Shown piece by piece: positions 40,892 through 64,000 of a stretch of DNA of 64,000 nt (its first letter is position 1; each line of letters opens with the position of its first letter). Under the pieces are notes generated by a model that worked only from the letters and a program-made list of their open reading frames with translations, made no database searches and had not been told where the DNA came from. A program made the position numbers and the translations under genes. The DNA lies in the NCBI GenBank assembly GCA_963668315.1, contig OY764216.1:1600001-1664000 (forward strand), in the 5' to 3' direction. This DNA comes from Spirochaetia bacterium (GTDB taxonomy: Bacteria > Spirochaetota > Spirochaetia > DSM-2461).

Positions 40892-40901
40892 AATTTATAC
40901 C

Positions 40902-45107: not shown

Positions 45108-45214
45108 AGTTTTCTTTTCCCATCGAAATCATTACTATTCATTGGGCTTATTTTATTCTAGCAGAAGAAATACCATTTGGAAAGATAAATAATTATGAAT
45201 TAAGCTAAATGGTT

Positions 45215-46411: not shown

Positions 46412-46514
46412 AAAAACGTGGCTTCCTTCTGTTTATCAAGGATTATACTATGATCCCAATCCGGCGGACAAGAGATATGGTGTCCAAAGAGAAAATGGGA
46501 TATACTAATAAGAT

Positions 46515-46835
46515 ATGAGTAAATGCAGAATCACAGTTCTAAAGCGGGAGTACTATCAGGATCTGGCCGATCAGTACCTGGCTGATCCGAATGTGGGAAA
46601 ATGTAATCTGTTCAAAGAGGGACAGGAATTTCTTGTTGATCAGAAAGATTATTTCCATATGCTGGATGGCAAATTCTGTTCAGAAGCCTGGGACAGTATA
46701 AGCCGATACGTCTATTCGGCTTTGCAGGGCGGTTCTATCATGAAAGGCTGGACCAATGACGAGAAGATCATGATCGCCTGCTGTAACGATGGAACCAGAC
46801 CTGTTATATTTAAAATAGAAAGGATTGACGACTGA
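46515..46835 (+). CDS. TIGR04076 family protein
   Basis: KCRITVLK..C..FKEGQEF..FCSEAW..IACCNDGTRPVIFKIERI. Confidence 0.82.
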   Translation: MSKCRITVLKREYYQDLADQYLADPNVGKCNLFKEGQEFLVDQKDYFHMLDGKFCSEAWDSISRYVYSALQGGSIMKGWTNDEKIMIACCNDGTRPVIFKIERIDD

Positions 46836-46900
46836 TCCGGGCTCCCTGGAGATGAACACCATTTCCCTGCAGGGGCCCTGAATCGTCCGGCATCCCCGTT

Positions 46901-48472
46901 TCAGAAACTCCTGAATCCCCTTGATACATCGACAAACTCTTCATAAACCCAGCCGAATTCTCCGTTGGCTCTTCTGACCATATACCAGGGAGTCGTATCG
47001 TATTTATTTTCTTCCCCGGCCGTATTTGCCGGAAGTCTTGAGTCAATCACAATCAGTTCTTCTTCGTCATCGAAGAGGCCGAGTATTTCGCCGTCCGTGC
47101 CGGGAGTACTTCTGTAGCGCACCCTTGTATCGTTCAGTCTTCCCGAAAGGCCGAATCCCTGTTTTCTGTAATCTTCCGGGGTCAGCTCTTCGGGCAGTCT
47201 GGCTCCGTAGCTTTGAAGCAGGGCCGTCATCTCCGGGGATTTGGCCGACTGCAGAGGGGTGCCGGCTGTGAATTTCCCGAACCCATAGCTGTAGTTCAGA
47301 AGATTTACATTCGCCCCCCCATCAATCAGTATCTTCACCATTTCGGGCTTCCCGTAAGAGATGGCGGAAGTAAGGAAATTGCCGCTTCCTCCCGAGTCCT
47401 CTCCGTTTGAATAACTGAAGGTCGGATGAGTCCCGTCGTATCCGTTGTCAAGGAAGAGCTGCAGCACTTCCGGGGTGGAATAACGAATCACCCGGTAAAG
47501 GTCCCAGCTTGTTCCCAACTCCCCGCCCATATTGTGAGCCGCTCCGGCTTCCAGAAGAAACGTGAGCATTTCCAGGTCGCCCTCTTTAATAGGGTCCCAC
47601 AGGCAGGAAACGGTGGCATCATAGTTGCCCCCGTAACAAGTCTGACTGAAGCCGTTATCAATGAGGAATTTTATCATTTCAAAATCCCTGTCATCGATGC
47701 TTTTAAAAAAGGGCGATTCTCCCCGTTCAATGTACGGGCTATCGTATTTTTTATAGCCGAGAGCCTTGAGTTTTAAAATTGAATCGTAATCCTTGTCCCC
47801 GTAAAAATACCAGAACCATTCGTCTTCCGGCTGGAGAACCATTTTTACTCCCAGGCTGTCCAGGTTCAGGGAGTAACTGGATTCATGATCATATTCGGTT
47901 TTCTCCTTGTTACGGGAGCGGTAGGTTCCGACGAAAAAATTACCTTCGGTCCTATCCCATTTCATCTCCGACACCTCGCCGTAACTGGTTTCCTCCCGGG
48001 AGAGGTAAAGGCTGTCAGAGGGAAGGGCATCCGAATCGAACCTTACCTCCCGGCTGCTTGAGGTGATAAATCGGAACTCCCCATCGGTATAGAATATCTG
48101 CATATGCTGATGCCCGCTATTGGGGTTATAGTAGGGCCCCTCTCTTCTTTCCTTATCCGTTGAAACCAGGGCTATGTCCCCACCGAAGACCCAGTGCTCC
48201 TCCCCGCTGGCTGTACGAATCTTAAAAAAGGGAGCGGTCTGATACCCGAAGGTGTAGGCCCTGGGAGATACTTCCAGTATGTCAGCCATACTTACGGAAT
48301 ATCCCCAGTTGCCGAAGGAATTCACGTCATGGGGGATATTCAGATAGAAACCGGGACTATCCCATCCGCGAATATGCTCTCCCATGGGGATAGCCTTGTA
48401 ATCGGATAGATCGATTTCGGCAAAAGCGAAGGTGCTGACCAGTATAAAGAGGGGAAGTATTAATTTATTCAT
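46901..48472 (-). CDS. Secreted ankyrin-repeat protein with bacterial SH3 domain(s)
   Basis: Signal peptide, ankyrin-like GDLEMLTFLLEAGA and GKPEMVKILIDGGANVN, C-terminal VRYRSTPGT...WYMVR...GWVY. Confidence 0.75.
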   Translation of the reverse strand: MNKLILPLFILVSTFAFAEIDLSDYKAIPMGEHIRGWDSPGFYLNIPHDVNSFGNWGYSVSMADILEVSPRAYTFGYQTAPFFKIRTASGEEHWVFGGDIALVSTDKERREGPYYNPNSGHQHMQIFYTDGEFRFITSSSREVRFDSDALPSDSLYLSREETSYGEVSEMKWDRTEGNFFVGTYRSRNKEKTEYDHESSYSLNLDSLGVKMVLQPEDEWFWYFYGDKDYDSILKLKALGYKKYDSPYIERGESPFFKSIDDRDFEMIKFLIDNGFSQTCYGGNYDATVSCLWDPIKEGDLEMLTFLLEAGAAHNMGGELGTSWDLYRVIRYSTPEVLQLFLDNGYDGTHPTFSYSNGEDSGGSGNFLTSAISYGKPEMVKILIDGGANVNLLNYSYGFGKFTAGTPLQSAKSPEMTALLQSYGARLPEELTPEDYRKQGFGLSGRLNDTRVRYRSTPGTDGEILGLFDDEEELIVIDSRLPANTAGEENKYDTTPWYMVRRANGEFGWVYEEFVDVSRGFRSF

Positions 48473-48673
48473 AGCGGGGGGATTTTATATTTTATGGGGA
48501 TGACTGTCAAATGAGCGCTATTCTGAGTTATAGCGCTTTCTGGCTTATGGGTTACCAAGAATCATTGATTCTCCTTTCTTCAGAATTGGGAATAGTTTAC
48601 TTTCCTGTTACTTCATTCAGATATATTCCATGTAAATCATAAGAAAAGTTTCTGAAGGTAAAGGGTAATATAA

Positions 48674-50923
48674 GTGTCCGTTAAACATTACTGTATACTC
48701 ATCGTATCATTTTTAGTCTTCTCCCTGTCGTCCATTACGGCGGATGATGCATCCGGTGTGAGAGAAACTCCGAAAATCGCTCTTGTTTTACAGGGAGGAG
48801 GGGCCCTGGGAATTGCTCATATCGCCGTAATTAAAGAAATTGAACATCTGGGAATACCAATCGATATGGTTGTCGGGACCAGTATGGGATCGATAATCGG
48901 AGGGTTATATTCCGCGGGATATTCCCCGGAGGAGATGGAAGATCTTATCCGGACTACCGATTGGATGGAACTGTTCCTTCCGGAAATACCGAACAGCAAA
49001 AAAACGATCTGGGACCGTTACGATGAATCCCGATATATCTCAATGGGATTTTCCAGGAAGAAGCTGGATGCAGCGAAGGGATTATTATCTGACAAAAACA
49101 TCCTTCTTTATTTTGACAGACTGACTCTTCACTATGGGAACAATATTGATTTTGATACGCTCAGCCGTAAGTTCCGGGCTGTTGCTACGGATATTATGAC
49201 CGGAGAAAGGGTTGTTTTGAGCCATGGCTGTCTTTCCGATGCCATGAGAGCCAGCATGGGAATTCCCGGTGTTTTTGCACCCTATGCTGTGGGTAATCAT
49301 ATTCTTGTAGATGGAGGAGTCGTCGATAACCTTCCCATTGATGTGGCGAAGGAGCTGGGAGCGGATTACATTATTGCCGTACAGTTGAGCGGAGGGATCG
49401 ATTATTCCCTTGAAGAATTAAAGTCTTCACCTCTTATCCCCTTATCAAAGACAATTGATCTCCTAATTGAGCAGAATGTCAGATCTCAGCTCGATAAGGC
49501 TGATTTCCTGCTTACTATAGATCTTTCCGGATATCAGGCGGCTGATTTTTTACAGGGAGAAGAGATTCTGGAAATCGGCGAGGGGGTGGTTCGTGATAAT
49601 TCTGAAAGATTCCTTTCCCTTCGGGAAGAAATATATCAGATGAGGGCCGACACGAAAGGCTCCGATTCGGTATTAGTCCCGCCTCCCATTACAAGTCTTA
49701 CCGTAAGAGGAGCGACCAAAAAGGATGGGGAGAGAATAGAAGAAGCTTTCCACTCATTTCTGGGACACAGTCCGGATAGGGACGTCATAGAATCGGTATT
49801 GGAGGAATTATCGTCGGGTAATGTCTATCAGTCCATACGGATCGGGCGAAATTCCCCGGGAGAGGGGGGAGATGAATTACAGCTGAGACTTGAGAAGAAC
49901 CAGAACGTGAACAGCATTAATCTCGGGTTCTCTTCCGCCTCGACCTATTCTGATCAGGTTGGCAGTACCGAGGTCATATCCGGTGCCATTATTATGAGGG
50001 GACTATTCATCCCCGGTTCAAAATGGACGGTAGGATTTCAGCAGAATGATTCTCCCGGTCTTTATTTTACCTTTCTGCAGCCTGTGGGTCCCTTGTACCT
50101 TCGCTTTTTGAATTCCATATCAACCCAGGCGGACTTCGAATCTCTCGGTAGATTGGATGATAGTTCCTTTAAGTTCCAGAAAAGTGATACTACGATCATG
50201 GCGGGATTAAATCCCCTGAATACCGTTGATCTTTCAGTAGGTTTCAGTTACGACTCTTTCAGCTATAGTGAAGAGTATAATGAGATGATAGGGGAAGATA
50301 GGGAATCAAAATATCCTGTTTTTGTCAGTCATGCCGATCTGTTGACTCTTGATTCTTTCATTTTTCCTGAAAGAGGAGTTCATGCAAGAGTCTCATACCT
50401 TCATGATCTGCAAGGGTATATTTCGGAAAACAGTTTTCGGGTTTTTGAAACGGAAGGAACACTCGCGGTCCCTCTGACATCCTCTCTTTCATGTGAGCTT
50501 GAATGGGATGGAGGAACGGACTTCTCCGACAGGGAAGACGGAAGACCTGCCGCCCCGGTATTCTATAGACCCCAGCTGAATAACAGGAGGATGTTTCCTG
50601 AGAGTCTTGAGGGACAGGAAAGGACGGGAAGCTATACAGCGGGAATAAGCTTTCTATGCAAATACAGAATTCATAGAGATCTTAAAGATCCCCTCTTTCC
50701 CCTGTATTTTCTCATTCAGGGATCGGCAGGGTATTCCATGCAGGACTTTGATCAGGTGATGAATGGGGCGGATTATCTCTCCTGGAATGCGATCCTGGGG
50801 GGCGGTGTCAGGCTGTCCGATTCATTGGGCGTAATGCTCAAAACGGGGAGCTCATACGGATTTATCAATGGTCAGAGAGGCTTTATTGCCATTGACATCG
50901 GATCTTTCGGAATAAGGGATTAA
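48674..50923 (+). CDS. Patatin-like phospholipase with C-terminal beta-barrel (PlpD-like)
   Basis: Signal peptide, GGGALG, GTSMG (catalytic Ser), DGG and amphipathic C-terminal strands. Confidence 0.85.
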   Translation: MSVKHYCILIVSFLVFSLSSITADDASGVRETPKIALVLQGGGALGIAHIAVIKEIEHLGIPIDMVVGTSMGSIIGGLYSAGYSPEEMEDLIRTTDWMELFLPEIPNSKKTIWDRYDESRYISMGFSRKKLDAAKGLLSDKNILLYFDRLTLHYGNNIDFDTLSRKFRAVATDIMTGERVVLSHGCLSDAMRASMGIPGVFAPYAVGNHILVDGGVVDNLPIDVAKELGADYIIAVQLSGGIDYSLEELKSSPLIPLSKTIDLLIEQNVRSQLDKADFLLTIDLSGYQAADFLQGEEILEIGEGVVRDNSERFLSLREEIYQMRADTKGSDSVLVPPPITSLTVRGATKKDGERIEEAFHSFLGHSPDRDVIESVLEELSSGNVYQSIRIGRNSPGEGGDELQLRLEKNQNVNSINLGFSSASTYSDQVGSTEVISGAIIMRGLFIPGSKWTVGFQQNDSPGLYFTFLQPVGPLYLRFLNSISTQADFESLGRLDDSSFKFQKSDTTIMAGLNPLNTVDLSVGFSYDSFSYSEEYNEMIGEDRESKYPVFVSHADLLTLDSFIFPERGVHARVSYLHDLQGYISENSFRVFETEGTLAVPLTSSLSCELEWDGGTDFSDREDGRPAAPVFYRPQLNNRRMFPESLEGQERTGSYTAGISFLCKYRIHRDLKDPLFPLYFLIQGSAGYSMQDFDQVMNGADYLSWNAILGGGVRLSDSLGVMLKTGSSYGFINGQRGFIAIDIGSFGIRD

Positions 50924-51310
50924 GCCTCGCCGGCTGTCGGAGATACGCCCGGGGGGAACCGTGATCCCCGTACGGGGACTTTTGAGGAACAAATAATGAA
51001 TAATCAATTCAATCCGGCAATAAAATCTGCGGTGGCTGTCCTTATCCTGGTGAAGACTCCGGGTATCAAAGGGGCAATTAAGGCGTCATACCCGATCTAT
51101 ATTTATAGTCTATTGACTTTATGTTTCAATTAGTAGTATGGTAAACAAGCAAGTAAGTATTTTTCATTTATTTTTTTTGATCCATTTTTGAGCTTAAGAT
51201 TCCGATCGTTTCTACTTTCCGTTTCCTTTTAACTTTTCTGTATCAATTTATCTAATCTGAATTATTTCCTTGATAAATAAAACCGGAGAATCCGGTAAAA
51301 GGAGACGCAC

Positions 51311-51580
51311 ATGTCAAGCAATATTTATGTAGGCAACCTTAGTTGGAATCTGAACGAATCTGATCTTCAGAACCTTTTTAGCGAATTTGGTGACGTTGAA
51401 TCTGTGAAAATCATCTTTGACAGGGACACTAATCGTTCAAAGGGATTCGGATTTGTCGAAATGTCAGATAATGATTCCGCTTCAAAAGCGATTTCTGCTC
51501 TTAATGGAAAGGAACTCGATGGCAGAAATATTAGGGTTAACATGTCAGAGCCAAGACCTAATAGGGGTCGGAACTACTAA
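51311..51580 (+). CDS. RRM (RNP-1) RNA-binding protein
   Basis: RNP2 IYVGNL and RNP1 KGFGFVEM. AGGAG RBS. Confidence 0.95.
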   Translation: MSSNIYVGNLSWNLNESDLQNLFSEFGDVESVKIIFDRDTNRSKGFGFVEMSDNDSASKAISALNGKELDGRNIRVNMSEPRPNRGRNY

Positions 51581-51595
51581 GACTGATATTAAATA

Positions 51596-51626
51596 AAAAA
51601 AAGGTCACTTATGGTGACCTTTTTTT
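51596..51626. terminator. Bidirectional intrinsic terminator
   Basis: A-run/GGTCAC-TTATG-GTGACC/T-run. Confidence 0.75.
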
Positions 51627-51637
51627 ATGGAGAAATA

Positions 51638-51796
51638 ATGGGAAAAACGAACTACAGTTATGAAAAAAGAAAGCGGGAATTGGATAAACAGAAGAAGAAA
51701 GAAGAAAAGCTGAAGAAAAAACAGCTAAAGAAAGAGATGGTTGATAATCCTGGTGAATTTGAGATCATTGAAAAAACCGAAGATGAAGAAGAGTAG
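51638..51796 (+). CDS. Small Lys/Glu-rich protein
   Basis: GGAG RBS; MGKTNYSYEKRKRELDKQKKKEEK...EDEEE. Confidence 0.65.
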   Translation: MGKTNYSYEKRKRELDKQKKKEEKLKKKQLKKEMVDNPGEFEIIEKTEDEEE

Positions 51797-52176
51797 GCCG
51801 ATTCATTATAGCGGTGCACTCGTTTTATAGCTTCTGATAATTATGGCAGAAGACTCCAGGGAGAAACCCTGTTTCGAAAGGCTATATCTTAAGCGTCCGT
51901 GAATTAGCTTGTCCAGACACATCGAAAACAAAGGCTGAATCCAGCCAAATGGTTCCAGGAAAAAGTTCATCAACATGCCCTGGCTCCCATGAAAAATGAT
52001 ACTCCTATGGGGTAATATCTCTCTTCTTTCCATTATGTCTCTCTCGGAAAAAATTATTAAGCCGATCAATGCTGAATTTCCAAAGAAAGAATTAATCAGA
52101 CTGCTGAAGTAGAAAGGAAAGTCTGTTCGGCCCAGTCCACTTCAGCTGCCTGTTTGTCAAATATCCCGTAGAAAAC

Positions 52177-53394
52177 TTACTCGCTAATCCATTCGGCCGT
52201 GAGCGTCAGGCTGAAGTTAATGGAGGAAGAGCGGGTATAGGTGATTTTCGTTCTTCTCCCGTCAACTACGGTGCTATAAATCCATCCGGCGAATATGAGG
52301 CCTGAGTTTCTATCCGCTGCGGGATCGCGTTTGGTGAAGCACTCTCCGGGAAGGACCTCCTCGTAGGCTACGATGTAGGAGGAGCTGCTGCCGCCGAAGT
52401 CATTCTGGAATTTCACCAGGTAGGGGACCGACAGGGCTTCCGCCTCAATGGCTTCCGATGAACCGAAGGAGTTGAAGCTGCATACGCTGTAGGTGTGGGT
52501 TTCCCCCCGCACGGCGTCGGCGTCCGTATAGGACGTGACGTTGCTGCCGAGGGTGGCGATGGGAGCGCTCTCGTCGTCCCGGTAGATAAGGAAGCCCGTC
52601 TCGTCGTAGCTTTCGTCGCACCAACCGATGGTGATCTTCCCCTTGGTGGTGCTGCTCGTGCTGCTTGTACGGACGGCGGTGACCCCCGAGGGCTGTGCCG
52701 GTATGCCGTTGAAGTCATCCTCTGTCAGTTCAATGGTCTTGCTGCTCTGCAGATTCATCCGGATTCTCACCAGTTCCGTTACCGTCGTCAGTTGCTTCGA
52801 ACTTTCGTTATAGAGGCGAAATACCAGAAGATGGTTTCCAGCGGCGGCCCGGGAGTCAAGGTAGGATGCATAACCCTTTCCAGTCAGAAGACCGGATGAG
52901 ATATCCTCTCCTCCCAAGGTGGCCGATACGGTAGAGACATCCAACCCGTCCGGCCAGTTCAGGGTCACGGCGAGTGTCCCCGTGCCCCTCTGGACGGCTT
53001 CGAGGGAAAAGGTGAGGGACCCCGATTCGGTAAGGGCCACATCCCGGGTATCCTCCATTATCAGGTACCCCCCAGACACCTCATCGTAGGCCTCCAGTCT
53101 GAAGCTCCAGAAGCCGGTGGCCAGAGAGAGGGTCATCGAGGAAGCATCGGCTCTCCAGCTCCCCAGCGTTTCCTCGGCGCCTCCGTTACGGCTGCCCGAG
53201 AGAACGTACCGGGCCGCATCGGTCTGGGTATAGTTGACGGTCCGCGAATCGGGGGATGAGAGGTTAATGGCAACAGTCGCGGTTCCCCCCTTTTCCGACG
53301 GGTCCGGAGATCCCAGGCTTCCCATTTCGCAGGAGATCATAACTCCCGCCAGAAGCAGACACAATATTATCGCGTTTGTAAAAGTCTTTGTCAT
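52177..53394 (-). CDS. Lipoprotein with fibronectin III domain and partial InlB B-repeat
   Basis: Lipobox MISC; PAQPSGVTA..W.DES.DETGF.IYR..YTD..YSVCSFN. Confidence 0.75.
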   Translation of the reverse strand: MTKTFTNAIILCLLLAGVMISCEMGSLGSPDPSEKGGTATVAINLSSPDSRTVNYTQTDAARYVLSGSRNGGAEETLGSWRADASSMTLSLATGFWSFRLEAYDEVSGGYLIMEDTRDVALTESGSLTFSLEAVQRGTGTLAVTLNWPDGLDVSTVSATLGGEDISSGLLTGKGYASYLDSRAAAGNHLLVFRLYNESSKQLTTVTELVRIRMNLQSSKTIELTEDDFNGIPAQPSGVTAVRTSSTSSTTKGKITIGWCDESYDETGFLIYRDDESAPIATLGSNVTSYTDADAVRGETHTYSVCSFNSFGSSEAIEAEALSVPYLVKFQNDFGGSSSSYIVAYEEVLPGECFTKRDPAADRNSGLIFAGWIYSTVVDGRRTKITYTRSSSINFSLTLTAEWISE

Positions 53395-53407
53395 TTCGGG
53401 TTATCCT

Positions 53408-54253
53408 CTAGTTCGTTACTGTAAATGTGATGCGTGACGAGTAAACCGTCCCGTTCCCGTCTGTCGCCACCAGAGTCAGCTCGTAAACCCCTACGGTGAG
53501 GGATGCGGTATCGATTGTGACGGAAGAGGAGCCGGCTCCTGGGATAAGCGTTCCGTTCAGGTACCAGGCGTAGGAGCTGTAGGTCAGTGAGCTGGAAACG
53601 GAGAAATCCCCTGAGGTGCCCACTTCTAGGGAGCCGGGGCCGGTTATGGCCAGGTCCCCGTCCCCTTCAGTCGCTGTTGTCACGGTGATTTCCTGTACCG
53701 TGATCCATTTGGCGTAGAGGATTTTGTCCGTCCCGGGCACCCTGTCGGAGGCAAAATCCCAGGCCTCGGTGAAGGAGGCGTCCTTGTACCAGCCGTCGAA
53801 GTTATAGCCGTCGCAGGTGGGATCGCCGGGTTTGGTTATTAGAGAGCCGTAGTACGCGGTGATGGGGTCCACGCGGCTGCCTCCGTTGGAATCGAAGCTG
53901 ATGGTGTACTGGTTGGCAGTCCAGCACGCATACAGAACGACGTCTGAATCGCCCAGGACAAAGGTTTCGTTCTCAAGGTAGGTATTTCCCGTACCTTCAG
54001 ACGCTGTATTCCAGCCGGAGAAGCTGTGGTAATCTTTAGCCAGATCTGTGTTGCCCAGAACCGTGACCGTGTCTCCCCGACCGTACTCGGCGCTGTCCGA
54101 GGGGACCGTTCCCGAATCGGCGCCGTTTCCGTCGTAAGTCACGGCATAAGTCGCAGATGCCGGGGCGGTTGGCGAAGTACCGATGCTACAGGCGGAAAAA
54201 AGCACCATAAGCAGTGATCCCGTCAGAAAGGAGAAGGACAATTTTTCTTTCAT
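53408..54253 (-). CDS. Lipoprotein with two InlB B-repeats (Flg_new) and an Ig-like domain
   Basis: Lipobox FSAC, VTYDGNG..FSGWNT..LYACW and ISFDSNGG..FDGWY..LYAKW. GGAGG RBS before ATG 54253. Confidence 0.8.
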   Translation of the reverse strand: MKEKLSFSFLTGSLLMVLFSACSIGTSPTAPASATYAVTYDGNGADSGTVPSDSAEYGRGDTVTVLGNTDLAKDYHSFSGWNTASEGTGNTYLENETFVLGDSDVVLYACWTANQYTISFDSNGGSRVDPITAYYGSLITKPGDPTCDGYNFDGWYKDASFTEAWDFASDRVPGTDKILYAKWITVQEITVTTATEGDGDLAITGPGSLEVGTSGDFSVSSSLTYSSYAWYLNGTLIPGAGSSSVTIDTASLTVGVYELTLVATDGNGTVYSSRITFTVTN

Positions 54254-54386
54254 AAAGTGAAGACCTCCCAGGCCAAAAGATAGAAAAGTGTGTTTTTTCA
54301 TTGGTAAAAAAATATCCGAAGGCCGGGAGAATATCGTCCTAAATGATAATTCAGGACTCTTTTTTTGAATAAAAATGAGAAAGGGT

Positions 54387-54437
54387 TAAAAAAAAGCACC
54401 CTCCGAAGAAGATGCTCTATATATTATTACCCGTAAG
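54387..54437 (-). repeat. Eroded third copy of the att repeat (terminator and spacer only)
   Basis: AAAAAAAAGCACCCTCCGAAGAAGATGCTCTATATATTATTACCCGTAAG is identical to the copies near 59766 and 63587. The tRNA part is absent. Confidence 0.9.
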
Positions 54438-54450
54438 ATTTTCAGAATGA

Positions 54451-54743
54451 TCAACGATTTTTCCAACCTTCTGGATTTCTTTTCGCATGAAAGACGGCTA
54501 AAACAAGAATTGTATAATCCTGAATCGTATAGATGATCTGATACGGGAATCGTCTAATCAGAATTTTTCTATAAAGTTTATGGACAATTGGGAACATAAG
54601 GGGATTTCGCTTAATCATCGAAAATCCGTTATCAAGACAATTCAGAAATTCCCGGTCCAGATAGAGCGCTTTGCTTCTATACCATCGAAGAGCCTCACGG
54701 ATCTCATTCGAGCTTCCGATGTTATGACCAATTCATATTTCAT
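54451..54743 (-). pseudogene. RelE/ParE toxin, frameshifted
   Basis: Manual translation MKYELVITSEAR/NEIREALRWY...RRFPYQIIY...VLAVFHAKRNPEGWKNR*. 293 nt, one base short of 98 codons. Confidence 0.82.
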
Positions 54744-54752
54744 TAAAAGGAC

Positions 54753-54970
54753 TTATTCCTTTTCAAGTTCAGATCTAAAAGAATCCCAGTATAGAGCTGT
54801 CTCGGGATTATGTTTATAATGTTCTACCCTTTGCTCCAAATCCTTAATTTGAACATCGGTCAGGTTTGAGGTTTCTCTGGAAGCAGCTATTGTATCCCAT
54901 ATATCTTCCACAAGAATTATTTTTCTTCAATAGTCATATTGGATAGAGCCTGTTCAATGACAGTATTCAT
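54753..54970 (-). pseudogene. Addiction-module antitoxin (TIGR02574-like), frameshifted
   Basis: MNTVIEQALSNMTIEEK/IILVEDIWDTI...LTDVQIKDLEQRV..YKHNP...WD. 218 nt, one base short, with GGGAG RBS. Confidence 0.8.
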
Positions 54971-55415
54971 ATTACATCTCCCTTGTATTATTATAACAGC
55001 AAAGGTTGATGTTGACCATATCCGTCGATTAATTCTTTATTCTTAGGTAGGGCTAGGCATAAATCCATTTATATTCACCTCCCTATGTCCAATAACAGTT
55101 GCTATTCAAGATATACCACGGATTTCAAGATCGCCGTGAAACAGGGAATCGCCGATTTTTCCCATGTAAAGGAAATCCTCTATTCCCGTACAGCAACGGC
55201 GGTTGCTCTTTCTTTGGCTGACAATGCCCGGTATTAAAGATGAGAATTATACGATAAAACCCATTATGGAGAGTCAGATAAGCGGCAGCTACATGGAACA
55301 GCTCTGTACTATTAATGATGAAAGCGGGGAGCGTGTGGGTTATGTGGTTATTGAACTTCTTCCCGGTATTTATGAGGAATAATCAGATATTCCATTAAAA
55401 ATAGGATAAAATCCA

Positions 55416-55763
55416 ATGGCTGGTATAAAACTACTTGCCTTTGCAACTCTCGCGAGTGATCTTGAGCGATACAGGGGATTCTACTCCTGTTCAAATGCTA
55501 TTCTTTTTCTTGATGCCTATGGTCATGATGCGGGAGATTCAGTTCTTATATCAATCGCCGGTGTCATTAACAATCATATGCGCAGTTCGGATGTTATAGC
55601 TCGTAGTGGAGGAGAGGAAATCAGAGTTCCCGCTTCACTCGGGATAACAACGGTCAATGATTTAGAAGAACCTCTGGATCTGTTGTTGAAGCGGGCCGAC
55701 GAAGTTCTATATAAGGTAAAAGAAGAGGGAAGAAACTGCTGTCGTTATTCCATTGGAAAGTAA
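55416..55763 (+). pseudogene. Truncated, internally deleted GGDEF fragment
   Basis: DAYGHDAGDSVL...RSSDVIARSGGEE joined directly to IRVPASLG...LLKRADEVLYKVKEEGRN. Confidence 0.72.
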
Positions 55764-55806
55764 TAAACGAAATAATTCTGGCGCAGCAACTAATAATGGC
55801 CAGTTC

Positions 55807-57231
55807 CTATGAAATAAGTTTATTCTTCTCCTCCTTAATCTCACTCGCTTTTTTCTTTAGGATGAAGCCCAGAGGGACCGCTATCATAACAATGACAGCC
55901 GATATCTTATAGATACTGTTTACAGCCTCTGTGAATGAGTGGGATATGTCCCTGCCGGCCTGGGCATAGCGGGATATCAGAATGGTAAGCATGGAAGCAA
56001 ATATACTCAGGGAAAGGGATGCCAGCGCCTGGCGTATCCAGTTATTCAGGGAAGAGGCATGACTGCTCTCTTCCCTGGGGAGAATCTCCATCCCCGCATT
56101 GGTCGCCGGAATGATGGAGAGGGAAATACCCAGACTCCTTATTGTCATCCAGAGAATGGAGTAACCCTCCGATGTTACCGGTGTTAGCTCTCCCATTTTC
56201 CAGGAGCCCAACGCTATTAATATCGCCCCGGACAGAATAAGTGTACGGGGTCCTGTACGGTTGTAAGCCAGTCCGACCAGGGGCATAACCAATGCGGTAA
56301 TAAGCGAGGCGGGCAGGAGAACCAGCCCGGCTTTAAGGGGAGACATCTGCTGGACATTCTGCAAAAACAGGGGGGTAAGCAGCGAACCGGCATAAAGGGA
56401 AATCGTTATAATGCTCGTAATAATGACGCTTATGGTAAAGCGGGTATATTTGAATATCCGGAGATTCAGAAGAGGATGGGGACATCTTAATTCCTGAATG
56501 GTAAAGAGGGCCAGCAGGATCAATCCAAAGACTATAAGCCCCAGCGTTCGGGGCGAGGCCCAGCCCCATTTCGAACTGCTGCTGAAGGCAATCAGCAAAG
56601 CCAGGCTGGCCAGTATTCCGGTTGTGAATCCTATAATGTCAAAACGTTTGCTCTCACCCACTGTGTAATAGGGCACGTGAAACTTAATGAGGACGGCTGT
56701 GACTATTCCCAAGGGGATATTGAAAAGAAAAACAAACCGCCAGCTGGAAAGACCGATAAGCCATCCACTGAGAGTAGGACCGACGGCGGGGGATAGCATG
56801 GCCGCCAGACTCCAGAGACTGATGGCCAGGGCATGTTTTTCACTGGCGATGTTTTCATAAATAATCGTCATCGTGACAGGTGCTATCAGTCCGCTGAAGA
56901 TCCCCTGGAGTATTCGGAACAGAATCAGTGTTTCGCTGTTCCAGGCCCCAGCGCATAAAAGGGAAGAGAGGGTAAAGCCGAGCAGCGCATGGAAGCAGAC
57001 TCGCTGATTACTGAATTTCCGACCGAGAAATCCGGTTACCGGAGCGACTACTCCGGCGGCCAGCATGAATCCTGTAAGCGTCCAGTTTATGGTTCTCAGG
57101 TTCGAATTGAACTGCTCCATTAAGGCGGGCAAAGCGATATTCATAGTACTGGTACCGATGAATGCAAGGAAAGAGGACAGGAAGATTGCCAGCATCATCG
57201 GACCGGATTTATTTGTATTCTGTTTTGTCAT
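55807..57231 (-). CDS. DHA2 (EmrB/QacA) MFS efflux transporter
   Basis: MNIALP, LILFRILQG, PAVGPTLSGWL, WRFVFLFNIPLG. GAGGGAGG RBS before ATG 57231. Confidence 0.9.
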   Translation of the reverse strand: MTKQNTNKSGPMMLAIFLSSFLAFIGTSTMNIALPALMEQFNSNLRTINWTLTGFMLAAGVVAPVTGFLGRKFSNQRVCFHALLGFTLSSLLCAGAWNSETLILFRILQGIFSGLIAPVTMTIIYENIASEKHALAISLWSLAAMLSPAVGPTLSGWLIGLSSWRFVFLFNIPLGIVTAVLIKFHVPYYTVGESKRFDIIGFTTGILASLALLIAFSSSSKWGWASPRTLGLIVFGLILLALFTIQELRCPHPLLNLRIFKYTRFTISVIITSIITISLYAGSLLTPLFLQNVQQMSPLKAGLVLLPASLITALVMPLVGLAYNRTGPRTLILSGAILIALGSWKMGELTPVTSEGYSILWMTIRSLGISLSIIPATNAGMEILPREESSHASSLNNWIRQALASLSLSIFASMLTILISRYAQAGRDISHSFTEAVNSIYKISAVIVMIAVPLGFILKKKASEIKEEKNKLIS

Positions 57232-57379
57232 AATTAAGACCTCCCTCATCGAGTTTTTTATAGAGTTTACTTCCCGTTGTTTCAACCATTAAAATCCAAC
57301 ATAATGAAAGATATTAAACATATTAATAATATCTGACGGATTACTTTCATAAAGTAAAAAATTGACTTAGAATAAAAGT

Positions 57380-57943
57380 ATGAAATCAGACGGCAGAGTT
57401 CGGTATACTAAAATGATGATTCGTCATTCTCTCCTGAAACTTCTGGAAAGCAAAACCATAAACAAAGTGACGGTGACTGATATATGCACCCTGTCTGAGA
57501 TTAACCGGGCTACCTTTTATTATCATTACCGCGATGCCTTCGATTTGTTGAATCAGATACAAGAAGAGATGTACGAAGAGATCAGGCAAGCGTCCCTTAG
57601 CCGGGATAAGGAAGACCGCTACAGTACGGGATACGCCGTTTTATCCATTGTCAGCAGGCATGCCGATCTTTTCCGCATCCTTCTTTCTGAGAAGGGTGAC
57701 AAAAGCTTTCTGGAGAAAATAGGAGAGCTGAACAGGGAACAGTGTCTGTCTGAATGGCAGCAGTTGTACCCCCGGGCGAGTAAGCAGGAACTCAAAGCCG
57801 TCTTCGCTTATATTTCCCATGGCAGCCTGGCGATAATAGAGTCCTGGCTTAAGGACGGAATGAAAACCGGCGTCCGCGAACTTGCCGAATTCCTCCATGA
57901 AATGAACGATAGAAGCCTTTCTCTTCTTGCTGATCATCCGTAA
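57380..57943 (+). CDS. TetR/AcrR regulator (divergent from the MFS pump)
   Basis: DGRVRYTK..VTVTDIC..SEINRATFYYHYRD. Confidence 0.92.
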   Translation: MKSDGRVRYTKMMIRHSLLKLLESKTINKVTVTDICTLSEINRATFYYHYRDAFDLLNQIQEEMYEEIRQASLSRDKEDRYSTGYAVLSIVSRHADLFRILLSEKGDKSFLEKIGELNREQCLSEWQQLYPRASKQELKAVFAYISHGSLAIIESWLKDGMKTGVRELAEFLHEMNDRSLSLLADHP

Positions 57944-57988
57944 GAAACAGTTCCGGCCTGTTCTTGCCGCAGACCGGGACTGTTATAT

Positions 57989-58978
57989 TTAATCGACGGG
58001 CATTAACTTTCTGTTCTGTCGGATAAGCAGGAAAAGGTAAGCGAAATGGATGGCGGAAACCACAAGGACCGGCACATAGGCGACAGTGGTTCCCCTCGCA
58101 AAGGCATAGACTATATCGTAAATATGCAGGATCACCGGAATGGCGAATAATATAAGTCCGTCCTGCTTCAGATCCATGGGCTTCATTTTTTTTCTGAATG
58201 CGATAAGCAGAGCTATGGCAAAGGCAAAGTTGAGGCAGAGTATCAGAAGCTCGCTGGTAAGAGTTGACTGGGAGGGATCGATCTTTCCGAACAGCAGAAA
58301 GCGTCCCAGAGGATTCCCGAAGCTGAACGCCTGAATGATTCCGGCTATAAAGGGATATAAATTCCCGATCCAGGACAAAGAGGAGGGAAGCTTTCTGTAG
58401 AGCCAGTCCCCGACCATAGCGTAAACCGTGTAATAAAACATCAGATACATCCAGCCGCTGTAATTATAGAAGGGGATACCGAAAAATCCTCCCTCATATC
58501 CCGGATCGGTCCAGTTCCACTGTCCCGACATAATGCCGTTTCCCAGGGCGCCGGGGTGGGTCAGGTTTATCGAATCGGCGACCGTCTGGGGAAGGGCGAC
58601 CCTATCGAAAACGGCGGCCGGGTCAATCGTCATATCCTGTACCGAGCCGAACAGGCCTACGACAAAGGGAATGGCCCAGACGGGGAGATTCAGTTTCTTC
58701 GCCAGATTGAAAGCGGCATACCATATGGATGCTTCAAGAAGCAGGATTTCCAGGGGAACGCCACCAACCATAATGATTCTTCTGAAATCATAATAATAAG
58801 TGTGAACCACATTGGTACCAACATTTTCAAATATGGCCGCTCCCAGCATAAAGCCGAAAAGTTCGAGAATCCTCAGGAAGGAATTCTCCTGTTTTACCGC
58901 ATGGCTTACTACAATAAAAAATACTATAAACGAAAAGAGTTCCACCAGGAACCAACTGACGGGTGTTCCAAATATCAT
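57989..58978 (-). CDS. Membrane protein, carotenoid-biosynthesis (DUF422/CruF-like) family
   Basis: Multi-TM, FEN..YYY..GGVPL, QDMTIDP, W.W...GFFGIPFYNYSGW. Confidence 0.65.
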   Translation of the reverse strand: MIFGTPVSWFLVELFSFIVFFIVVSHAVKQENSFLRILELFGFMLGAAIFENVGTNVVHTYYYDFRRIIMVGGVPLEILLLEASIWYAAFNLAKKLNLPVWAIPFVVGLFGSVQDMTIDPAAVFDRVALPQTVADSINLTHPGALGNGIMSGQWNWTDPGYEGGFFGIPFYNYSGWMYLMFYYTVYAMVGDWLYRKLPSSLSWIGNLYPFIAGIIQAFSFGNPLGRFLLFGKIDPSQSTLTSELLILCLNFAFAIALLIAFRKKMKPMDLKQDGLILFAIPVILHIYDIVYAFARGTTVAYVPVLVVSAIHFAYLFLLIRQNRKLMPVD

Positions 58979-59068
58979 TTGATACCTCCAGGTATTTTGT
59001 TATGGTACAAATATAATTTATCCGAACCAGTATTCACACAACATCGCCAGGCCGGGTGTCGATTCTGC

Positions 59069-59097
59069 AATCTACAATTGCATTGTAAGTGTAGATT
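59069..59097. promoter_or_regulatory. Putative TetR operator
   Basis: AATCTACA-N13-TGTAGATT between divergent genes. Confidence 0.55.
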
Positions 59098-59124
59098 TCT
59101 TATTATATATAGGGAGGTGGACTT

Positions 59125-59694
59125 ATCGAAACGGCAAAAAGAATAGAACAGGCTTTTATGGATCTCCTCGTTGAGAAAGAGAACTTCGAGTCTCTGTCCA
59201 TCGTAGAAATATGCACGAAAGCGAATATACACAGGACTACTTTTTATCTTCACTTCCAAGATAAATTTGAACTGTTGGATAAATGCCTACTGGATATTCT
59301 GGATGTTCCGGAATCGGAAGTCATTCTCTATACAGATTTATTATTGGAAGAGAAAATCTTTAATCTTATGAAATATGTCGCTTTGAATTGCAGCAGACAC
59401 AGCGATTTCCTGCTTCTGATTTTACAGAACGGCAGGTATCCCTATTTTTATACCCGGTTTCTCAAAGAGCTGGAGGGACAGATAGGAAAACAGATAGAAC
59501 GTATAAACAGGACTATGCTCAAGTCGGGCGGGAAAATGAATAAATACTGTAATGTCTTTCTCAGTTCGGCTTTGTTCGGTTCTATTCTCTTCTGGGCGGA
59601 GAATGGGGAACAGGAAGATATTGATAGTTATTGCAGGACCATCACAAAGTATATCATTGCGACCCTATATGCAGAAAGAGAATCTGCCCTGTAA
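59125..59694 (+). CDS. TetR/AcrR regulator with a non-canonical or damaged start
   Basis: LSIVEICTKANIHRTTFYLHFQDK. Helix 1 extends upstream of ATG 59158 to ATC 59125. Confidence 0.8.
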   Translation: METAKRIEQAFMDLLVEKENFESLSIVEICTKANIHRTTFYLHFQDKFELLDKCLLDILDVPESEVILYTDLLLEEKIFNLMKYVALNCSRHSDFLLLILQNGRYPYFYTRFLKELEGQIGKQIERINRTMLKSGGKMNKYCNVFLSSALFGSILFWAENGEQEDIDSYCRTITKYIIATLYAERESAL

Positions 59695-59765
59695 ACGTTC
59701 TTTCTCCGTGAGGTCTTGAAATAAAAGGGTCAATAAAGGCATCAATCCCGAAAATGGGACTAAAT

Positions 59766-59795
59766 AAAAAAAAGCACCCTCCGAAGAAGATGCTC
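59766..59795 (-). terminator. Intrinsic terminator downstream of the tRNA fragment (also in the other two copies)
   Basis: AGCATCTTC-TTCG-GAGGGTGCT then T-run (UUCG tetraloop, G-U pairs). Coordinates approximate. Confidence 0.82.
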
Positions 59796-59824
59796 TATAT
59801 ATTATTACCCGTAAGGGTTAACGT

Positions 59825-59876
59825 TGCGGTAGAGAAGACTTGAACTTCCACGGTCTTGCGACCACTAGCCCCTCAA
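59825..59876 (-). pseudogene. 3' half of tRNA-Leu(GAG) (att core A)
   Basis: TTGAGGG loop, GCTAG, variable arm GGTC-GCAA-GACC, T-arm GGAAG-TTCAAGT-CTTCT, CTACCGC-A. No D-arm or 5' acceptor strand. Confidence 0.88.
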
Positions 59877-60289
59877 TTCAGGGTACAGACTTATGTTGTT
59901 CATCTAAGGTCATAGGGAGCTGTATTTCATGTCTTATGTGGTTCTTTATCAATATAAGGCTTCTGAGCTTATATAATAAAGGCGTCGATACTGGTGTCTG
60001 TTAGTAATCATATGATTAATCTCGATTTTAGGTGGTTTACATCAACATTACTACCGAAGTAGTGCATGAAAGCGTAAAAAGTCATAGCACGCGGAACTAT
60101 AGATTTTCTTCAGGTCGGCGACAACTGCCTCGGTATGTCCTACTCCTTCACCTTTCCCATGAAATCCACCGAATCCCACTTCTTCTCAAAATTCCGCATT
60201 CCCTTCATCGCGTCCCACCGTTAAACAATCGATTTCAGTCTGACTGGTATGATAGCTTATAATGGATTTCGTAGATAGGGAGGGGCCGC

Positions 60290-62254
60290 TTAATCCTCTG
60301 CTGCCAGAATATCGCGCAGCAGCCGGCTCAGTTCGCCGTACATGAAGGGTTTCTGGATAAATCCGGCCAGACCGGCTTCTTTCATTTTTCTGATATTCTC
60401 ATCTTTCGTGAACCCGGAGGATATGATCACTTTGCATGCCCCGTCGATCTCCTTCATTTTGAAGAACGCATCGGAGCCGTTCATCTCGGGCATCAGCATA
60501 TCCATGATAACGAGATCTATTAGGGCATGTCTCTCCTTGAATAGTTCCACCACCTCCCTGCCGTTTGACGCCAGGGTAACGGAGAATCCCATTCCCTTGA
60601 GTATTTCCTTGCCAGTCCGGCGGATCAGTTCTTCATCGTCCGCCAGAAGAATATGCCCTTTTCCGGAAAAGGAGATGTCCTTCGGGGAGGAAGAAACCGG
60701 TGAATCCTCCGAACAGGGCAAGTAGAGGTGGAAAACGGTTCCCTCTCCCTCTTCGCTGTAGACATTTATGGCGCCCCTGTGGTTCTCTATCGTCGCGTAA
60801 ACCGTGGACAGGCCTAGACCCGTCCCCTTGCCCTGTTTTTTGGTCGTATAGAAGGGTTCGAATATTTTCCCTATCCTTTCGGGGGGAATTCCCGTTCCCG
60901 TGTCCCTGACTTCGATCTCAATAAAGTTTCCCGGGGAGATCTCAAAGGGGACAGACCGGCAGTAATAATCGTCAAGGAAGATATTCTTTGTCGAAATCCG
61001 CAGTTCCCCGCCGTCCGGCATGGCATGGGACGCGTTGATTCCCAGGTTGAGGAGGGCATTCTGCAGGGAAGCCCCGTCCCCCAGAACGGTAGACTGCTCC
61101 GCTTTTTCCGACAGATGAATCTCAATCCTTTTATCTATCGTCCTGTTGAGCAGGGTCATCATATCCCGGATAATGTCATGAACCGGGACAGGTCTCGTCG
61201 ATATTTCCGTTTTCCGCCCGAAGGTGAGCAGTTTGTTCGTCAGATTGGCCGCCTGGGTAGAGGCGTCGAGAATCATATCGACGAATTCCAATCCCGTCCT
61301 GTCCAGGTTCCTCTCGGGACTCTGCAGCAGCTGGGCCGCCCCGATAATTCCTCCGAGCATATTGTTGAAGTCGTGGGCCACCCCTCCCGCAAGCTGTCCT
61401 ATGGCATCCATTTTCTGGGACTGTCTCAGAAGATCATCCATTTTTCTGCGTTCCGTGATATCGATGAAGGATATGATAACCTGAATGATCTCCCCCCTTT
61501 CATCGAATTCCGGTTCCGCGTTGACCAGAACCCAAACCGGTTCACGGCTTTCCTCCTTTATGATTCCGACAATATAGTTTCGGATGGCCTTTTTCTGCTC
61601 CAGCACAAGGGATATGGGATATTCGGTAACGGGCATCAGAGTACCGTCGTCCCTGATGAAATGCCAGCTCTTGTCATCGGGATGCTTTCCCTTGATGGAA
61701 CTGTGGAGAAAACCGAGCAGCTGATCGGCCAGGGGATTGGTATCGATAATGTTTCCACGGCCGTCATGGAGAATTATGGCTGTCTGGACCTTGTTTATGA
61801 GGGATTTGTATTTCTCCTCGCTTTTCCTCAGGGTCCTGAGGGTCCCCGTGTGGGCATGGATCTGTTCCTGCAGGCTCAGGTTGCTCTTCTCCAGATCTTC
61901 GTTCGCCCGGCTCAGTTCGGCAGTCCTCTGGTCAACCAGCTGCTGCAGATTGTTTTCCTGTTCCGATTTTTCAAGGAGAATGGCAAGGATTTGTATGGCG
62001 TTATGGATCAGATTTTCCGTTTCCCGGTCCAAGGTTCTCTCCGAAATAAGGGAGAGGTATCCGTAGGTTTTTTTACGGGTGCATACTTCCATTTCCAGGC
62101 CCCCGTTCCTCCTTTTCTCCGAGAGCCAGCTGAAGGAGGCGGGCTGGAAAATGTTGTTCATGCTTTCGATAAAGAGCCGGATTATCCCGTCCTTGCTGTT
62201 CAGCTGGGAGATCGTCGTTGTCAGAAGGAACAGTTCCTGGGCGTAGTTCGGCAT
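60290..62254 (-). CDS. PAS hybrid histidine kinase
   Basis: Coiled coil, PAS, GQLAGGVAHDFNNML, GKGTGLGL, REC LVIMDMLMP. Confidence 0.92.
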   Translation of the reverse strand: MPNYAQELFLLTTTISQLNSKDGIIRLFIESMNNIFQPASFSWLSEKRRNGGLEMEVCTRKKTYGYLSLISERTLDRETENLIHNAIQILAILLEKSEQENNLQQLVDQRTAELSRANEDLEKSNLSLQEQIHAHTGTLRTLRKSEEKYKSLINKVQTAIILHDGRGNIIDTNPLADQLLGFLHSSIKGKHPDDKSWHFIRDDGTLMPVTEYPISLVLEQKKAIRNYIVGIIKEESREPVWVLVNAEPEFDERGEIIQVIISFIDITERRKMDDLLRQSQKMDAIGQLAGGVAHDFNNMLGGIIGAAQLLQSPERNLDRTGLEFVDMILDASTQAANLTNKLLTFGRKTEISTRPVPVHDIIRDMMTLLNRTIDKRIEIHLSEKAEQSTVLGDGASLQNALLNLGINASHAMPDGGELRISTKNIFLDDYYCRSVPFEISPGNFIEIEVRDTGTGIPPERIGKIFEPFYTTKKQGKGTGLGLSTVYATIENHRGAINVYSEEGEGTVFHLYLPCSEDSPVSSSPKDISFSGKGHILLADDEELIRRTGKEILKGMGFSVTLASNGREVVELFKERHALIDLVIMDMLMPEMNGSDAFFKMKEIDGACKVIISSGFTKDENIRKMKEAGLAGFIQKPFMYGELSRLLRDILAAED

Positions 62255-62259
62255 TGCAG

Positions 62260-62919
62260 CTATGGTTTATTCAGGAACTGGGGGGCATTTTCGGCAAGCC
62301 AGATATCCGGTTCCACGAAGTAGGGGTTTACCGTGAAGACTCCGCCGTTGATGGAGTAGGGATGGGTGCGGAGTACATTCATAAGCATCTCCCCGGATAT
62401 TTTCGAGGTATTGTAGAGGCAGAGGCTTATGACGGTTTTGTCCTTGACGAAATAGTTCAGCCTTGATTCATAGGCGAACAGATGCTCCACCCCTTTTACC
62501 TTCTGCAGGGCCCAGACCATCTCCGCCACGGCCCGCAGGTTGCGGGGGCCTTCCGCCTGGGTGTAATCGAAGTACCCGTTTATCGCCGTATCCATCAGCC
62601 AGGGATCGAAGACCCCGTCGGGATAGTAAAGCTCGGAAGCTTCTTTCACATCAAGGTCCCCGGGATTGTCCCGGTCGGCCCGGCACAGGGGGCAGTGGGC
62701 GTGATAGGTATCCCAGAAATGCTCTTCCGTCTGTTCGCTGTGTATATATATCTGACGGTCCTCATCGGCATAGCCCCGGCAGAGATAACCGGAAATAATC
62801 TCGTCCCGTTCCTTTTCCGTTTCGTAGAGGCCGCATATATGGGTTCCCCAGTTACACGAGTATTTTCCGATTCCCAGCATGAGTTTTTTCATTTCCGAAG
62901 TCTTTATATGCATGGACAT
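62260..62919 (-). CDS. Stand-alone MEDS (DcmR-like sensory) domain protein
   Basis: WGTHICGLYE, LRAVAEMVWAL, YESRLN, SLCLYN, VLRTHP. Confidence 0.8.
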   Translation of the reverse strand: MSMHIKTSEMKKLMLGIGKYSCNWGTHICGLYETEKERDEIISGYLCRGYADEDRQIYIHSEQTEEHFWDTYHAHCPLCRADRDNPGDLDVKEASELYYPDGVFDPWLMDTAINGYFDYTQAEGPRNLRAVAEMVWALQKVKGVEHLFAYESRLNYFVKDKTVISLCLYNTSKISGEMLMNVLRTHPYSINGGVFTVNPYFVEPDIWLAENAPQFLNKP

Positions 62920-63040
62920 TCCCTCCCCGCCGGTTCCTATGGATCTTCTCTTGAAGTTTAGTCTCTCATCATAGTGAAGTCAAATTTCAGGGGAGGACAG
63001 TAATCGGGGAATTGGCTTTCTTTCCGGGATAAAGAAACAC

Positions 63041-63223
63041 TTAGGACTCCAGCTGCAGAATATCATGGACCTGCCGGGAGAGTTCGAAGGATGAGAAAGG
63101 CTTCTGAAGAAATCCGTCCACTCCCTCTTCGCCGTCCGCGGCCTGACGTGTCTTATCGCCGCACCATTCCAGAATTTCAACGGCCAGCTGACGTATCAGC
63201 CTGTCGTCATCCACCACGAGCAA
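63041..63223 (-). pseudogene. Internally deleted response-regulator receiver fragment
   Basis: LLVVDDD...AADGEEG joined to VDGFLQKPF; the phosphoacceptor strand is missing. Confidence 0.7.
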
Positions 63224-63368
63224 TCCCTAGCTTATTGGCTTCTTTGGAGAGAGCAACAACGCATCCATCATTATTGCTGAGTACTACGACAGGTTTATCT
63301 TTAAGATCAGGTCTAAATACCTTTTCACAGCTGGCATAGAATGAGTTACAATCGACAAGAGCAATCAT
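63214..63368 (-). pseudogene. umuC: 5' fragment of Y-family polymerase V subunit
   Basis: Manual translation [52 protein letters not shown], then broken. Confidence 0.9.
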
Positions 63369-63480
63369 GAAGTTTTGCAATGATGGATAATATCATTCAC
63401 TACCCCCCAAACCTCAAAATCCATCTCTTCCGTAATTTTGATTGGAGTATAGTTTTTGTTGCCTGGATATAGCCGGGGTT
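63365..63480 (-). pseudogene. umuD: 3' fragment of UmuD (S24 peptidase)
   Basis: [37 protein letters not shown], stop overlapping the umuC ATG (ATGA). Confidence 0.8.
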
Positions 63481-63542
63481 CAGGTCATGTTTATTCAGGA
63501 TTCCTAAAAGGTAAAATCCTCCTTTTTCCTCTCTACTCCCGA

Positions 63543-63828
63543 AAATAAAAGGGTCAAAAAAGGCATCAATCCCGAAAATGGGACTAAAAAAAAAGCACCC
63601 TCCGAAGAAGATGCTCTATATATTATTACCCGTAAGGGTTAACGTTGCGGTAGAGAAGACTTGAACTTCCACGGTCTTGCGACCACTAGCCCCTCAATTC
63701 AGTGTACGACCTTATGTTGTTTTTATAGAGTCATATAGGGCTATATTTCAGGGTTTATGTGGTCTGTTTTTCATATGAAGCTTCTGGGCCTTTATAATAA
63801 AGGCGTCGATACTGGTGTCTATTAGTAA
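63543..63828 (-). mobile_element. attP-like junction B
   Basis: Direct repeat of 59719-60007. Confidence 0.85.
63646..63697 (-). pseudogene. 3' half of tRNA-Leu(GAG) (att core B)
   Basis: 52 nt identical to 59825-59876. Confidence 0.88.
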
Positions 63829-64000
63829 ATGAAAAGTTATCATTTGCATTCTTAATGATTCTTCCAGGGTGCAATGATATATCCAATGACTGATAGTTAT
63901 CCTTCATCAAAAGAACGCTTTGCTACTTTTAGCCTTATTCAAGGATATGGATAGGGGAAGTTTCCAATTTATGCTATGAACGGGATAAAACGAACCGGAT

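Follow-up and report, generated by a model that had tools for sequence, protein, structure and literature searches.

Tandem integrase-less units at a tRNA-Leu(GAG) gene of a Spirochaetia bacterium are likely remnants of large tyrosine-integrase elements

The window analyzed here is a stretch of 64,000 nucleotides from the genome of a Spirochaetia bacterium (G000, 5.62 Mb; window at G000:1,600,001-1,664,000), and its right end enters a tandem array of accessory DNA anchored at a tRNA-Leu(GAG) gene. The intact tRNA gene was found on the minus strand 7.3 kb right of the window (G000:C1:1671251-1671334), which made it possible to recognize three tandem units, namely units 3, 2, and 1 in outward order from the tRNA (7.6, 3.8, and 5.4 kb, respectively). 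These units are likely internally deleted remnants, resembling cis-mobilizable elements (CIMEs), of 40-50-kb tyrosine-integrase elements that were inserted serially at the anticodon loop.

The original prediction, which was made from the sequence of the window alone, described two direct repeats of about 290 bp with identical tRNA-Leu(GAG) halves and a UUCG terminator. Both repeats are present (59719-60007 and 63543-63828; 89.7% identity over 290 columns, E 7e-106 in the 5.62-Mb genome), and define junctions A and B. Their tRNA halves (59825-59876 and 63646-63697) agree with one another and with the intact gene at all 52 positions, and both are followed by the UUCG-loop terminator. In the orientation of the tRNA, a full junction consists of a repeat pair, about 105 bp of spacer, a 7-bp core, the rest of the tRNA half, the terminator, and a second repeat pair. 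The upstream pair is of the GACGCC type and sits 123 bp before the core; the upstream and downstream sides are referred to as the P and P' arms. The first base of the anticodon loop is exactly where the match to the tRNA sets in, and the 7-bp loop (59870-59876 in junction A) is the putative crossover site. Each full junction is attP-shaped. The P arms of junctions A and B are identical at 106 of 132 positions, and the arm of junction A scored 98 bits against an arm profile in which this same copy was included. A search of RNA families (Rfam) at the junction returned only a sub-threshold, terminator-like match.

The eroded third copy in the prediction, junction C, was also recovered, and is identical to the corresponding part of copy A (59765-59815) at 51 of 51 positions. 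It is limited to the terminator part; the P arm and the tRNA half are missing, and short look-alike sequences flank the missing part. The adjoining segment 54422-55173 matches G003:C358:18044-18805 with 88% identity, and beyond this match the G003 locus continues with an intact arm and a tRNA-Leu(CAG) half. Because both arm and core are intact at the G003 locus, junction C likely lost them by deletion. The sequence at 54387 may be the native terminator or the start of an older fourth unit.

When the junction repeat DNA was searched, the upstream arm was matched in several relatives. A strict arm pattern, which misses the junctions of G000 itself, is present in 16 of 301 genomes of the class (six genera). 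In a species collection, the pattern gave 13 matches, all in Spirochaetales or Spirochaetia records. In the loci that were fetched, three targets occur downstream of the arm: tRNA-Leu(GAG), tRNA-Leu(CAG), and tRNA(CAT). The core is the anticodon loop in the two leucine tRNAs and the T loop in tRNA(CAT), and a short inverted-repeat motif around the core is common to all three. An upstream pair occurs at 24 of the 62 cores, at a distance of 123-124 bp in 23 cases and 113 bp in one. The downstream pairs mostly lie 122-123 bp (tRNA-CAT) or 129-137 bp (Leu) away. Intact tRNAs never have an upstream pair, several distal junctions have the upstream pair alone, and these one-sided junctions behave as attL and attR should. 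The predicted tRNA-anchored tandem accretion with attP-like junctions is supported.

Closed units, which were selected by their arms to the exclusion of open-ended ones, number 36 in 16 genomes and range from 0.9 to 52 kb (median 5.1 kb). Gene content differs between units of relatives, as found in the comparison that the original prediction had proposed for cargo. In relative G020, two neighboring units share a 506-bp end with 99% identity (L030-L032, G020:C2:2211740-2256437), which is the mirror case of a shared start in G000: the first 223 bp of unit 2 are identical at every position to those of unit 3 (genome 1671080-1671302).

That identity is also what an assembly artefact, or plain duplication apart from site-specific recombination, could produce. 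Such an explanation is extremely improbable. In contigs from three runs of one sample, probably the source, depth is about fourfold at the tRNA half, twofold at the shared unit start, and single in the units. The unitig depths match copy numbers of 4, 3, 2, and 1, and therefore the repeats are not an assembly artefact, a possibility that had been raised at the outset. In addition, arms A and B differ by 20%, and the same anatomy with fixed spacing recurs in the 16 genomes, whereas the reversed pattern was found in none of the 301.

The array itself lacks a recombination gene: there is no match to PF00589, PF07508, or the clade profile described below. The earlier statement that the units encode no recognizable integrase was therefore correct, while the expectation of an integrase further right was not; the gene beyond the intact tRNA encodes histidinol dehydrogenase, and the nearest of 14 PF00589 matches in the genome is 870 kb away, at 2,544,599. 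Clustering of 609 open reading frames (ORFs) from 56 units or part-units identified one tyrosine integrase family, present in five units. Apart from genes with transposase, transporter, or signaling domains, no gene is common to most units. This integrase clade contains 29 proteins, 19 of them near full length, with 53-100% identity, followed by a gap to 34%. Members were found in six of 401 genomes of the class (up to four candidates scored per genome), near full length in three, and fragments occur in four more genomes among 51 chosen. For the 13 clade loci seen in context, eight lie in or beside arm-marked units and one is ambiguous. The catalytic R-H-R-H-Y residues are conserved across the clade. 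The predicted fold has an N-terminal domain of three strands and a helix, aligns along full-length lambda Int, and also matches Tn1549 Int. Given the co-occurrence of arms and integrase, the clade may bind the GACGCC repeats. Sister integrases with about 30-36% identity lack arms in all 23 stretches examined (20 distinct loci, most with only 1.5 kb of flank), though several are at the same tRNA-Leu genes. They also lie directly behind the tRNA, whereas the clade integrase lies 1.9-2.2 kb inside the arm.

Other candidate agents were considered and rejected. For a serine recombinase, PF07508 matches were found in one of five genomes searched and are absent from G000. A phage parent found no support, since the arm pattern had no match in viral contigs and no structural phage gene was recognized among 34 proteins scanned with PHROGs; phage relatives of the integrase were not found with a single query and reached at most 35% identity with an alignment query. 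For a plasmid parent, the best matches were 24%. Separately, a tyrosine recombinase at G000:C1:3134196-3134801 has a longer catalytic match (about 600 bp) and is possibly an integron integrase. Most of the searched genomes contain a single recombinase of this type, which often lies close to a contig end.

It is also very unlikely that one of the resident integrases of G000 acts on the array from elsewhere in the chromosome. The 14 PF00589 matches provide candidates; one of them (3,447,090-3,448,469) sits 0.65 kb from a fourth tRNA-Leu half, and a second copy of unit 3 cargo lies inside another integrase-bearing island. Nevertheless, no clade member is present in G000: the best resident match to the arm-linked clade has 28% identity and 165 bits, compared with about 600 bits for members, and its island ends in different repeats. 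The integrase at 3.447 Mb is preceded by a tRNA-Pro gene. The tRNA-Leu half at that place lacks a P arm and resembles the product of an insertion into a look-alike site.

This fourth tRNA-Leu(GAG) half belongs to the stretch G000:C1:3400435-3446441. It lies behind the tRNA-Pro integrase module, has the terminator and P' pair of the other halves, and follows a look-alike of the left side of the tRNA. At a distance of 46 kb, an eroded repeat pair is found beside a ParE module with 82% similarity to that of unit 1. The stretch probably represents the insertion of a family member at a secondary site, and its cargo, as read from ORFs, looks like type II secretion/pilus and RHS-type genes.

Two arm-bounded elements carry an intact clade integrase, G007:4407749-4459434 (51.7 kb) and G110:3611807-3651280 (39.5 kb). 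In both, this gene is located 1.9-2.2 kb inward of the P' arm. The two elements share the integrase (64% identity), ParA, a second recombinase, and several hypothetical genes, and each has a replication-initiator-like gene. The slot between P' arm and integrase is filled over 2 kb by a split retron-type reverse transcriptase in G007 (L025:18137-19069) and by an SMI1/KNR4 gene in G110. In G007, a small HTH gene behind the integrase is a candidate directionality factor. One array of G007 also contains a pair of full tRNA-Leu(GAG) genes separated by 27 kb (L024-L025, C1:4380243 and 4407717), the second of which has a 3' half of the G000 type.

Unit 3 of G000 can be linked to the G007 element. The final 7.0 kb of the 51.7-kb element (G007:C1:4452438-4459485) recur at G000:1663646-1670692 with 98.8-98.9% identity, such that 7 kb of cargo are shared at this level between two genera. 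Arm B is identical at 129 of 131 positions to the arm that ends this element. At its start, the tRNA half and P' arm are 90% similar to those of G000, whereas the host's own half matches at 42 of 52 positions. Because of these similarities at both ends, unit 3 likely represents a G007-type element minus about 44 kb, integrase included. The original prediction had offered larger islands eroded to their ends as an alternative to its own preferred reading; this alternative is directly supported for unit 3.

Several lines of evidence are consistent with the interpretation of the units as remnants. Among the 36 closed units, an intact clade integrase is present in two, a fragment in three, and none in 31, which forms a decay series. 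In the window, decay is evident in junction C and in several cargo genes, providing further support. The integrase would bind the GACGCC pairs through its N-terminal domain and cross over in the 7-bp loop. Each insertion would restore the tRNA and push older units outward, leaving P-core-P' seams, and subsequent deletions would take the integrase and backbone but spare the ends. Toxin-antitoxin (TA) pairs beside the P arm may help remnants persist. The units would then be stranded in G000 until a related element arrives, which might mobilize them in cis or, by action of its integrase in trans, through their intact ends.

Some observations weigh against this interpretation. A parent was found for unit 3 only, and units 1 and 2 have no trace of backbone. 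For unit 3, no match in the genome or the fetched loci was obtained with the 390 bp that follow its shared start. This segment and the shared 223-bp start indicate that unit 3 is not the product of a single clean deletion of a G007 element; the layout would be expected if a duplication or a circle had extended across junction B and the autonomous copy was lost afterwards. Four of the 13 clade loci are without arms, three of them on contigs of 2-8 kb and the other in 80 kb. For descent from integrative and conjugative or integrative and mobilizable elements, no relaxase or conjugation gene was recognized among the scanned part of the parent-element proteins. Finally, the many units with both arms at exact spacing are what selection for continued mobility, or ascertainment bias, would give.

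A different possibility is that the units are working cassettes: rare autonomous elements would provide the integrase in trans, and arm-complete units would excise, circulate, and re-insert at the three tRNAs. Such a tRNA-anchored cassette system of the Spirochaetia, with a rare integrase clade acting in trans on TA-guarded mini-islands and cassettes arising from junction-spanning circles that contain an attP seam and adjacent cargo, appears rather unlikely. In its favor, 34 of the 36 closed units have no intact integrase and most have both arms, units of 0.9-1.1 kb hold little besides a TA module, and the common core motif of the three targets means that one enzyme might serve all. If true, the identical 223-bp starts of units 2 and 3 would be explained by re-insertion of a junction-spanning circle. 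On the other hand, no small unit was found at two places among the 56 units or part-units, with only ends or inner blocks being shared, unit 3 traces to a large element, and G000 has no clade integrase. The proposed search for an excised circle of unit 2 found neither a circle joint nor excess depth (contigs, one sample): the depth of unit 2 was 92.2, 223.4, and 216.1 in the three runs, compared with 85.3, 226, and 256.6 for the flank. The same was true for all of units 1-3, although rare circles are invisible in such data, and the tests against present mobility in G000 are weak for rare events. One apparent circle joint was rejected, as it came from alignment of the unit 2 contig to arm B, which is similar but has 24 differences.

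The ends of the units have a TA slot, which bears on both interpretations. Among 43 P arms of relatives, 19 have a TA-type gene (by Pfam) within 900 bp inside the arm. The types include ParE, BrnT, HigB, Gp49/HTH, and nucleotidyltransferase with or without HepT/HEPN, and DUF4160/DUF2442 genes are beside three more; we take Gp49 and DUF4160/DUF2442 to be TA modules. With 18 arm-adjacent genes as queries, 19 of 36 units gave TA matches in their last kb and none of 33 in their first kb, with two matches in the other 333 kb, a positional contrast that is inflated because the queries came from arm-adjacent genes. For comparison, 0.12% of random G000 windows have such matches. The query-biased count of 19 fits selection against excision or loss, as expected of cassettes. 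More generally, the slot suggests that unit ends stay under loss pressure, which fits remnants and cassettes alike. The relic pair of unit 1 fits the slot: both reading frames are broken, and the pair lies beside the lost P arm. Two minimal units of 0.9 and 1.1 kb at tRNA-Leu(GAG) each comprise hardly anything beyond arms and a TA-type module (L094, G005:C12:1619-3674).

Table 1. Junction parts and cargo genes of the array within the window (window positions unless prefixed).
Feature	Position	Strand	Remarks
Eroded junction C	54387..54437	-	Terminator and 20 nt beside the tRNA end only
Decayed ParE toxin and addiction-module antitoxin (unit 1)	54454..54970	-	PF05016 E 7e-7, PF09720 E 7e-9
GGDEF fragment (unit 1)	55416..55763	+	PF00990, partial
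DHA2-family MFS efflux gene (-) and divergent TetR (+) (unit 1)	55807..57943	mixed	TIGR00711, PF14278
Membrane protein (-) and divergent TetR (+) (unit 1)	57989..59694	mixed	Weak PF04240
Junction A P' repeat pair	59726..59744	-	132 bp past the core
Junction A terminator hairpin and U-tract	59766..59795	-	Sequence
Junction A tRNA-Leu(GAG) 3' half	59825..59876	-	Identity ends at the 5' edge of the loop
Junction A P arm	59877..60007	-	Repeat pair 59981-59999, 123 bp before the core
Hybrid PAS histidine kinase, MEDS protein, and REC fragment (unit 2)	60290..63223	-	Pfam
UmuC N-terminal fragment	63210-63368	-	PF00817 E 5e-14
UmuD-like C-terminal fragment	63368-63484	-	No Pfam match
Unit 2 start	63475..63697	-	tRNA half, terminator 63593-63616, P' pair 63550-63568, 70 further bp
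Junction B P arm (end of unit 3)	63698..63828	-	Repeat pair 63802-63820
Last bases of unit 3 in the window	63829..64000	-	Unit continues to G000:C1:1671250

For the cargo (Table 1), most labels given in the original prediction were supported by Pfam or TIGR00711; the DHA2 pump of unit 1 scored 331 bits against a TIGR00711 cut-off of 230. Two labels were weaker, namely the DUF422-like membrane protein (sub-threshold PF04240 match, E 0.002) and the UmuD piece, for which the resemblance is presumed. Unit 3 contains genes for GGDEF, DUF6320, acyltransferase-like, PTS enzyme I-like, and RRM proteins and lacks an integrase. In the tRNA(CAT) region of G000 (G000:C1:4482827-4649123), the tandem islands include two with unrelated integrases, and the middle island has a 96% copy of 6.7 kb of unit 3 cargo; therefore, this cargo moves between element families. 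After the two islands, another integrase-less family member is marked by a T-loop junction (4,482,982) with a triple GACGCC repeat behind it.

Left of junction C, the window has a further 20 kb of accessory DNA with lower GC content (34500-54400). In a comparison with five relatives, 29,300-34,550 is conserved, whereas 34,500-54,400 has only scattered matches. It includes a multicopy insertion sequence at 35569-36918, of which 13 further near-identical copies were found, as well as an RRM gene 75% similar to that of unit 3.

The original prediction had likened the array to an integron with small cassettes. In a chromosomal integron, IntI lies beside attI, and the cassettes are bounded by attC and mostly contain single genes in the same orientation. 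The array has in common with these systems tandem accessory units, the newest of which is beside a fixed anchor, and TA modules among them. However, with no tyrosine recombinase within 870 kb, there is no adjacent IntI, and the junctions are tRNA halves with arm repeats. The units also carry 3-7 genes in mixed orientation with their own regulators (divergent regulator pairs in unit 1), and sizes in the family reach 52 kb. The integron-like part of the prediction is thus not upheld.

A closer counterpart is provided by CIMEs, which are defined as decayed elements that keep att sites and lack recombination and transfer genes; those of Streptococcus carry cargo, measure 1.2-13 kb, stack in tandem at one target, and are reported to be more numerous than autonomous elements at a tRNA site (PMC5704250, PMC7563491). 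Units 2 and 3 similarly keep core and arm at both ends, the array has no recombination gene, and no conjugation or mobilization gene was found, with the main ORFs of units 1-3 matching only cargo families in Pfam. There are also differences: unit 1 lacks the distal arm and core, all three units are integrase-less without an autonomous neighbor, and no conjugation module was recognized in the part of the parent proteins scanned. Moreover, one arm family spans three tRNAs, and TA genes occupy a fixed end slot.

Two other systems are comparable. Islander lists the anticodon loop among three tRNA crossover sub-sites and requires an integrase for each island (PMC4383910); units like these would therefore be filtered out. 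The displaced 3' tRNA fragment and the anticodon-loop crossover are shared with the islands of that type, but a single clade here apparently targets the anticodon loop in two Leu tRNAs as well as the T loop in tRNA-CAT. Tycheposon islands of Prochlorococcus involve serial tRNA integration with partial tRNA copies between elements (bioRxiv 10.1101/2020.12.28.424599). As in that account, intact elements are rare, integrases are fragmented, and elements combine an integrase, replication-type genes, and cargo; unlike it, the present family belongs to another phylum and has parents of 40-52 kb with ParA and a second recombinase. Two features of lambda-type integration are also present, a putative 7-bp crossover at a tRNA loop with a displaced 3' fragment and arm repeats at fixed distances. 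Arm-like repeats on both sides of the core and the predicted three-domain model of the integrase resemble lambda attP and Int.

A literature search found no paper on such elements in these spirochaetes, and a narrow search on integrase action in trans on such islands found none, which says little. The mechanism itself, CIME-type accretion, is already known. For this family, the likely parent element, the integrase clade, the arm motif, and a shared 7-kb cargo have all been identified. The array exemplifies a class of islands skipped by integrase-anchored island finders. Finally, one integrase clade appears to serve three tRNAs that share a core motif, and remobilization of integrase-less remnants in trans is testable with one enzyme and three natural targets.

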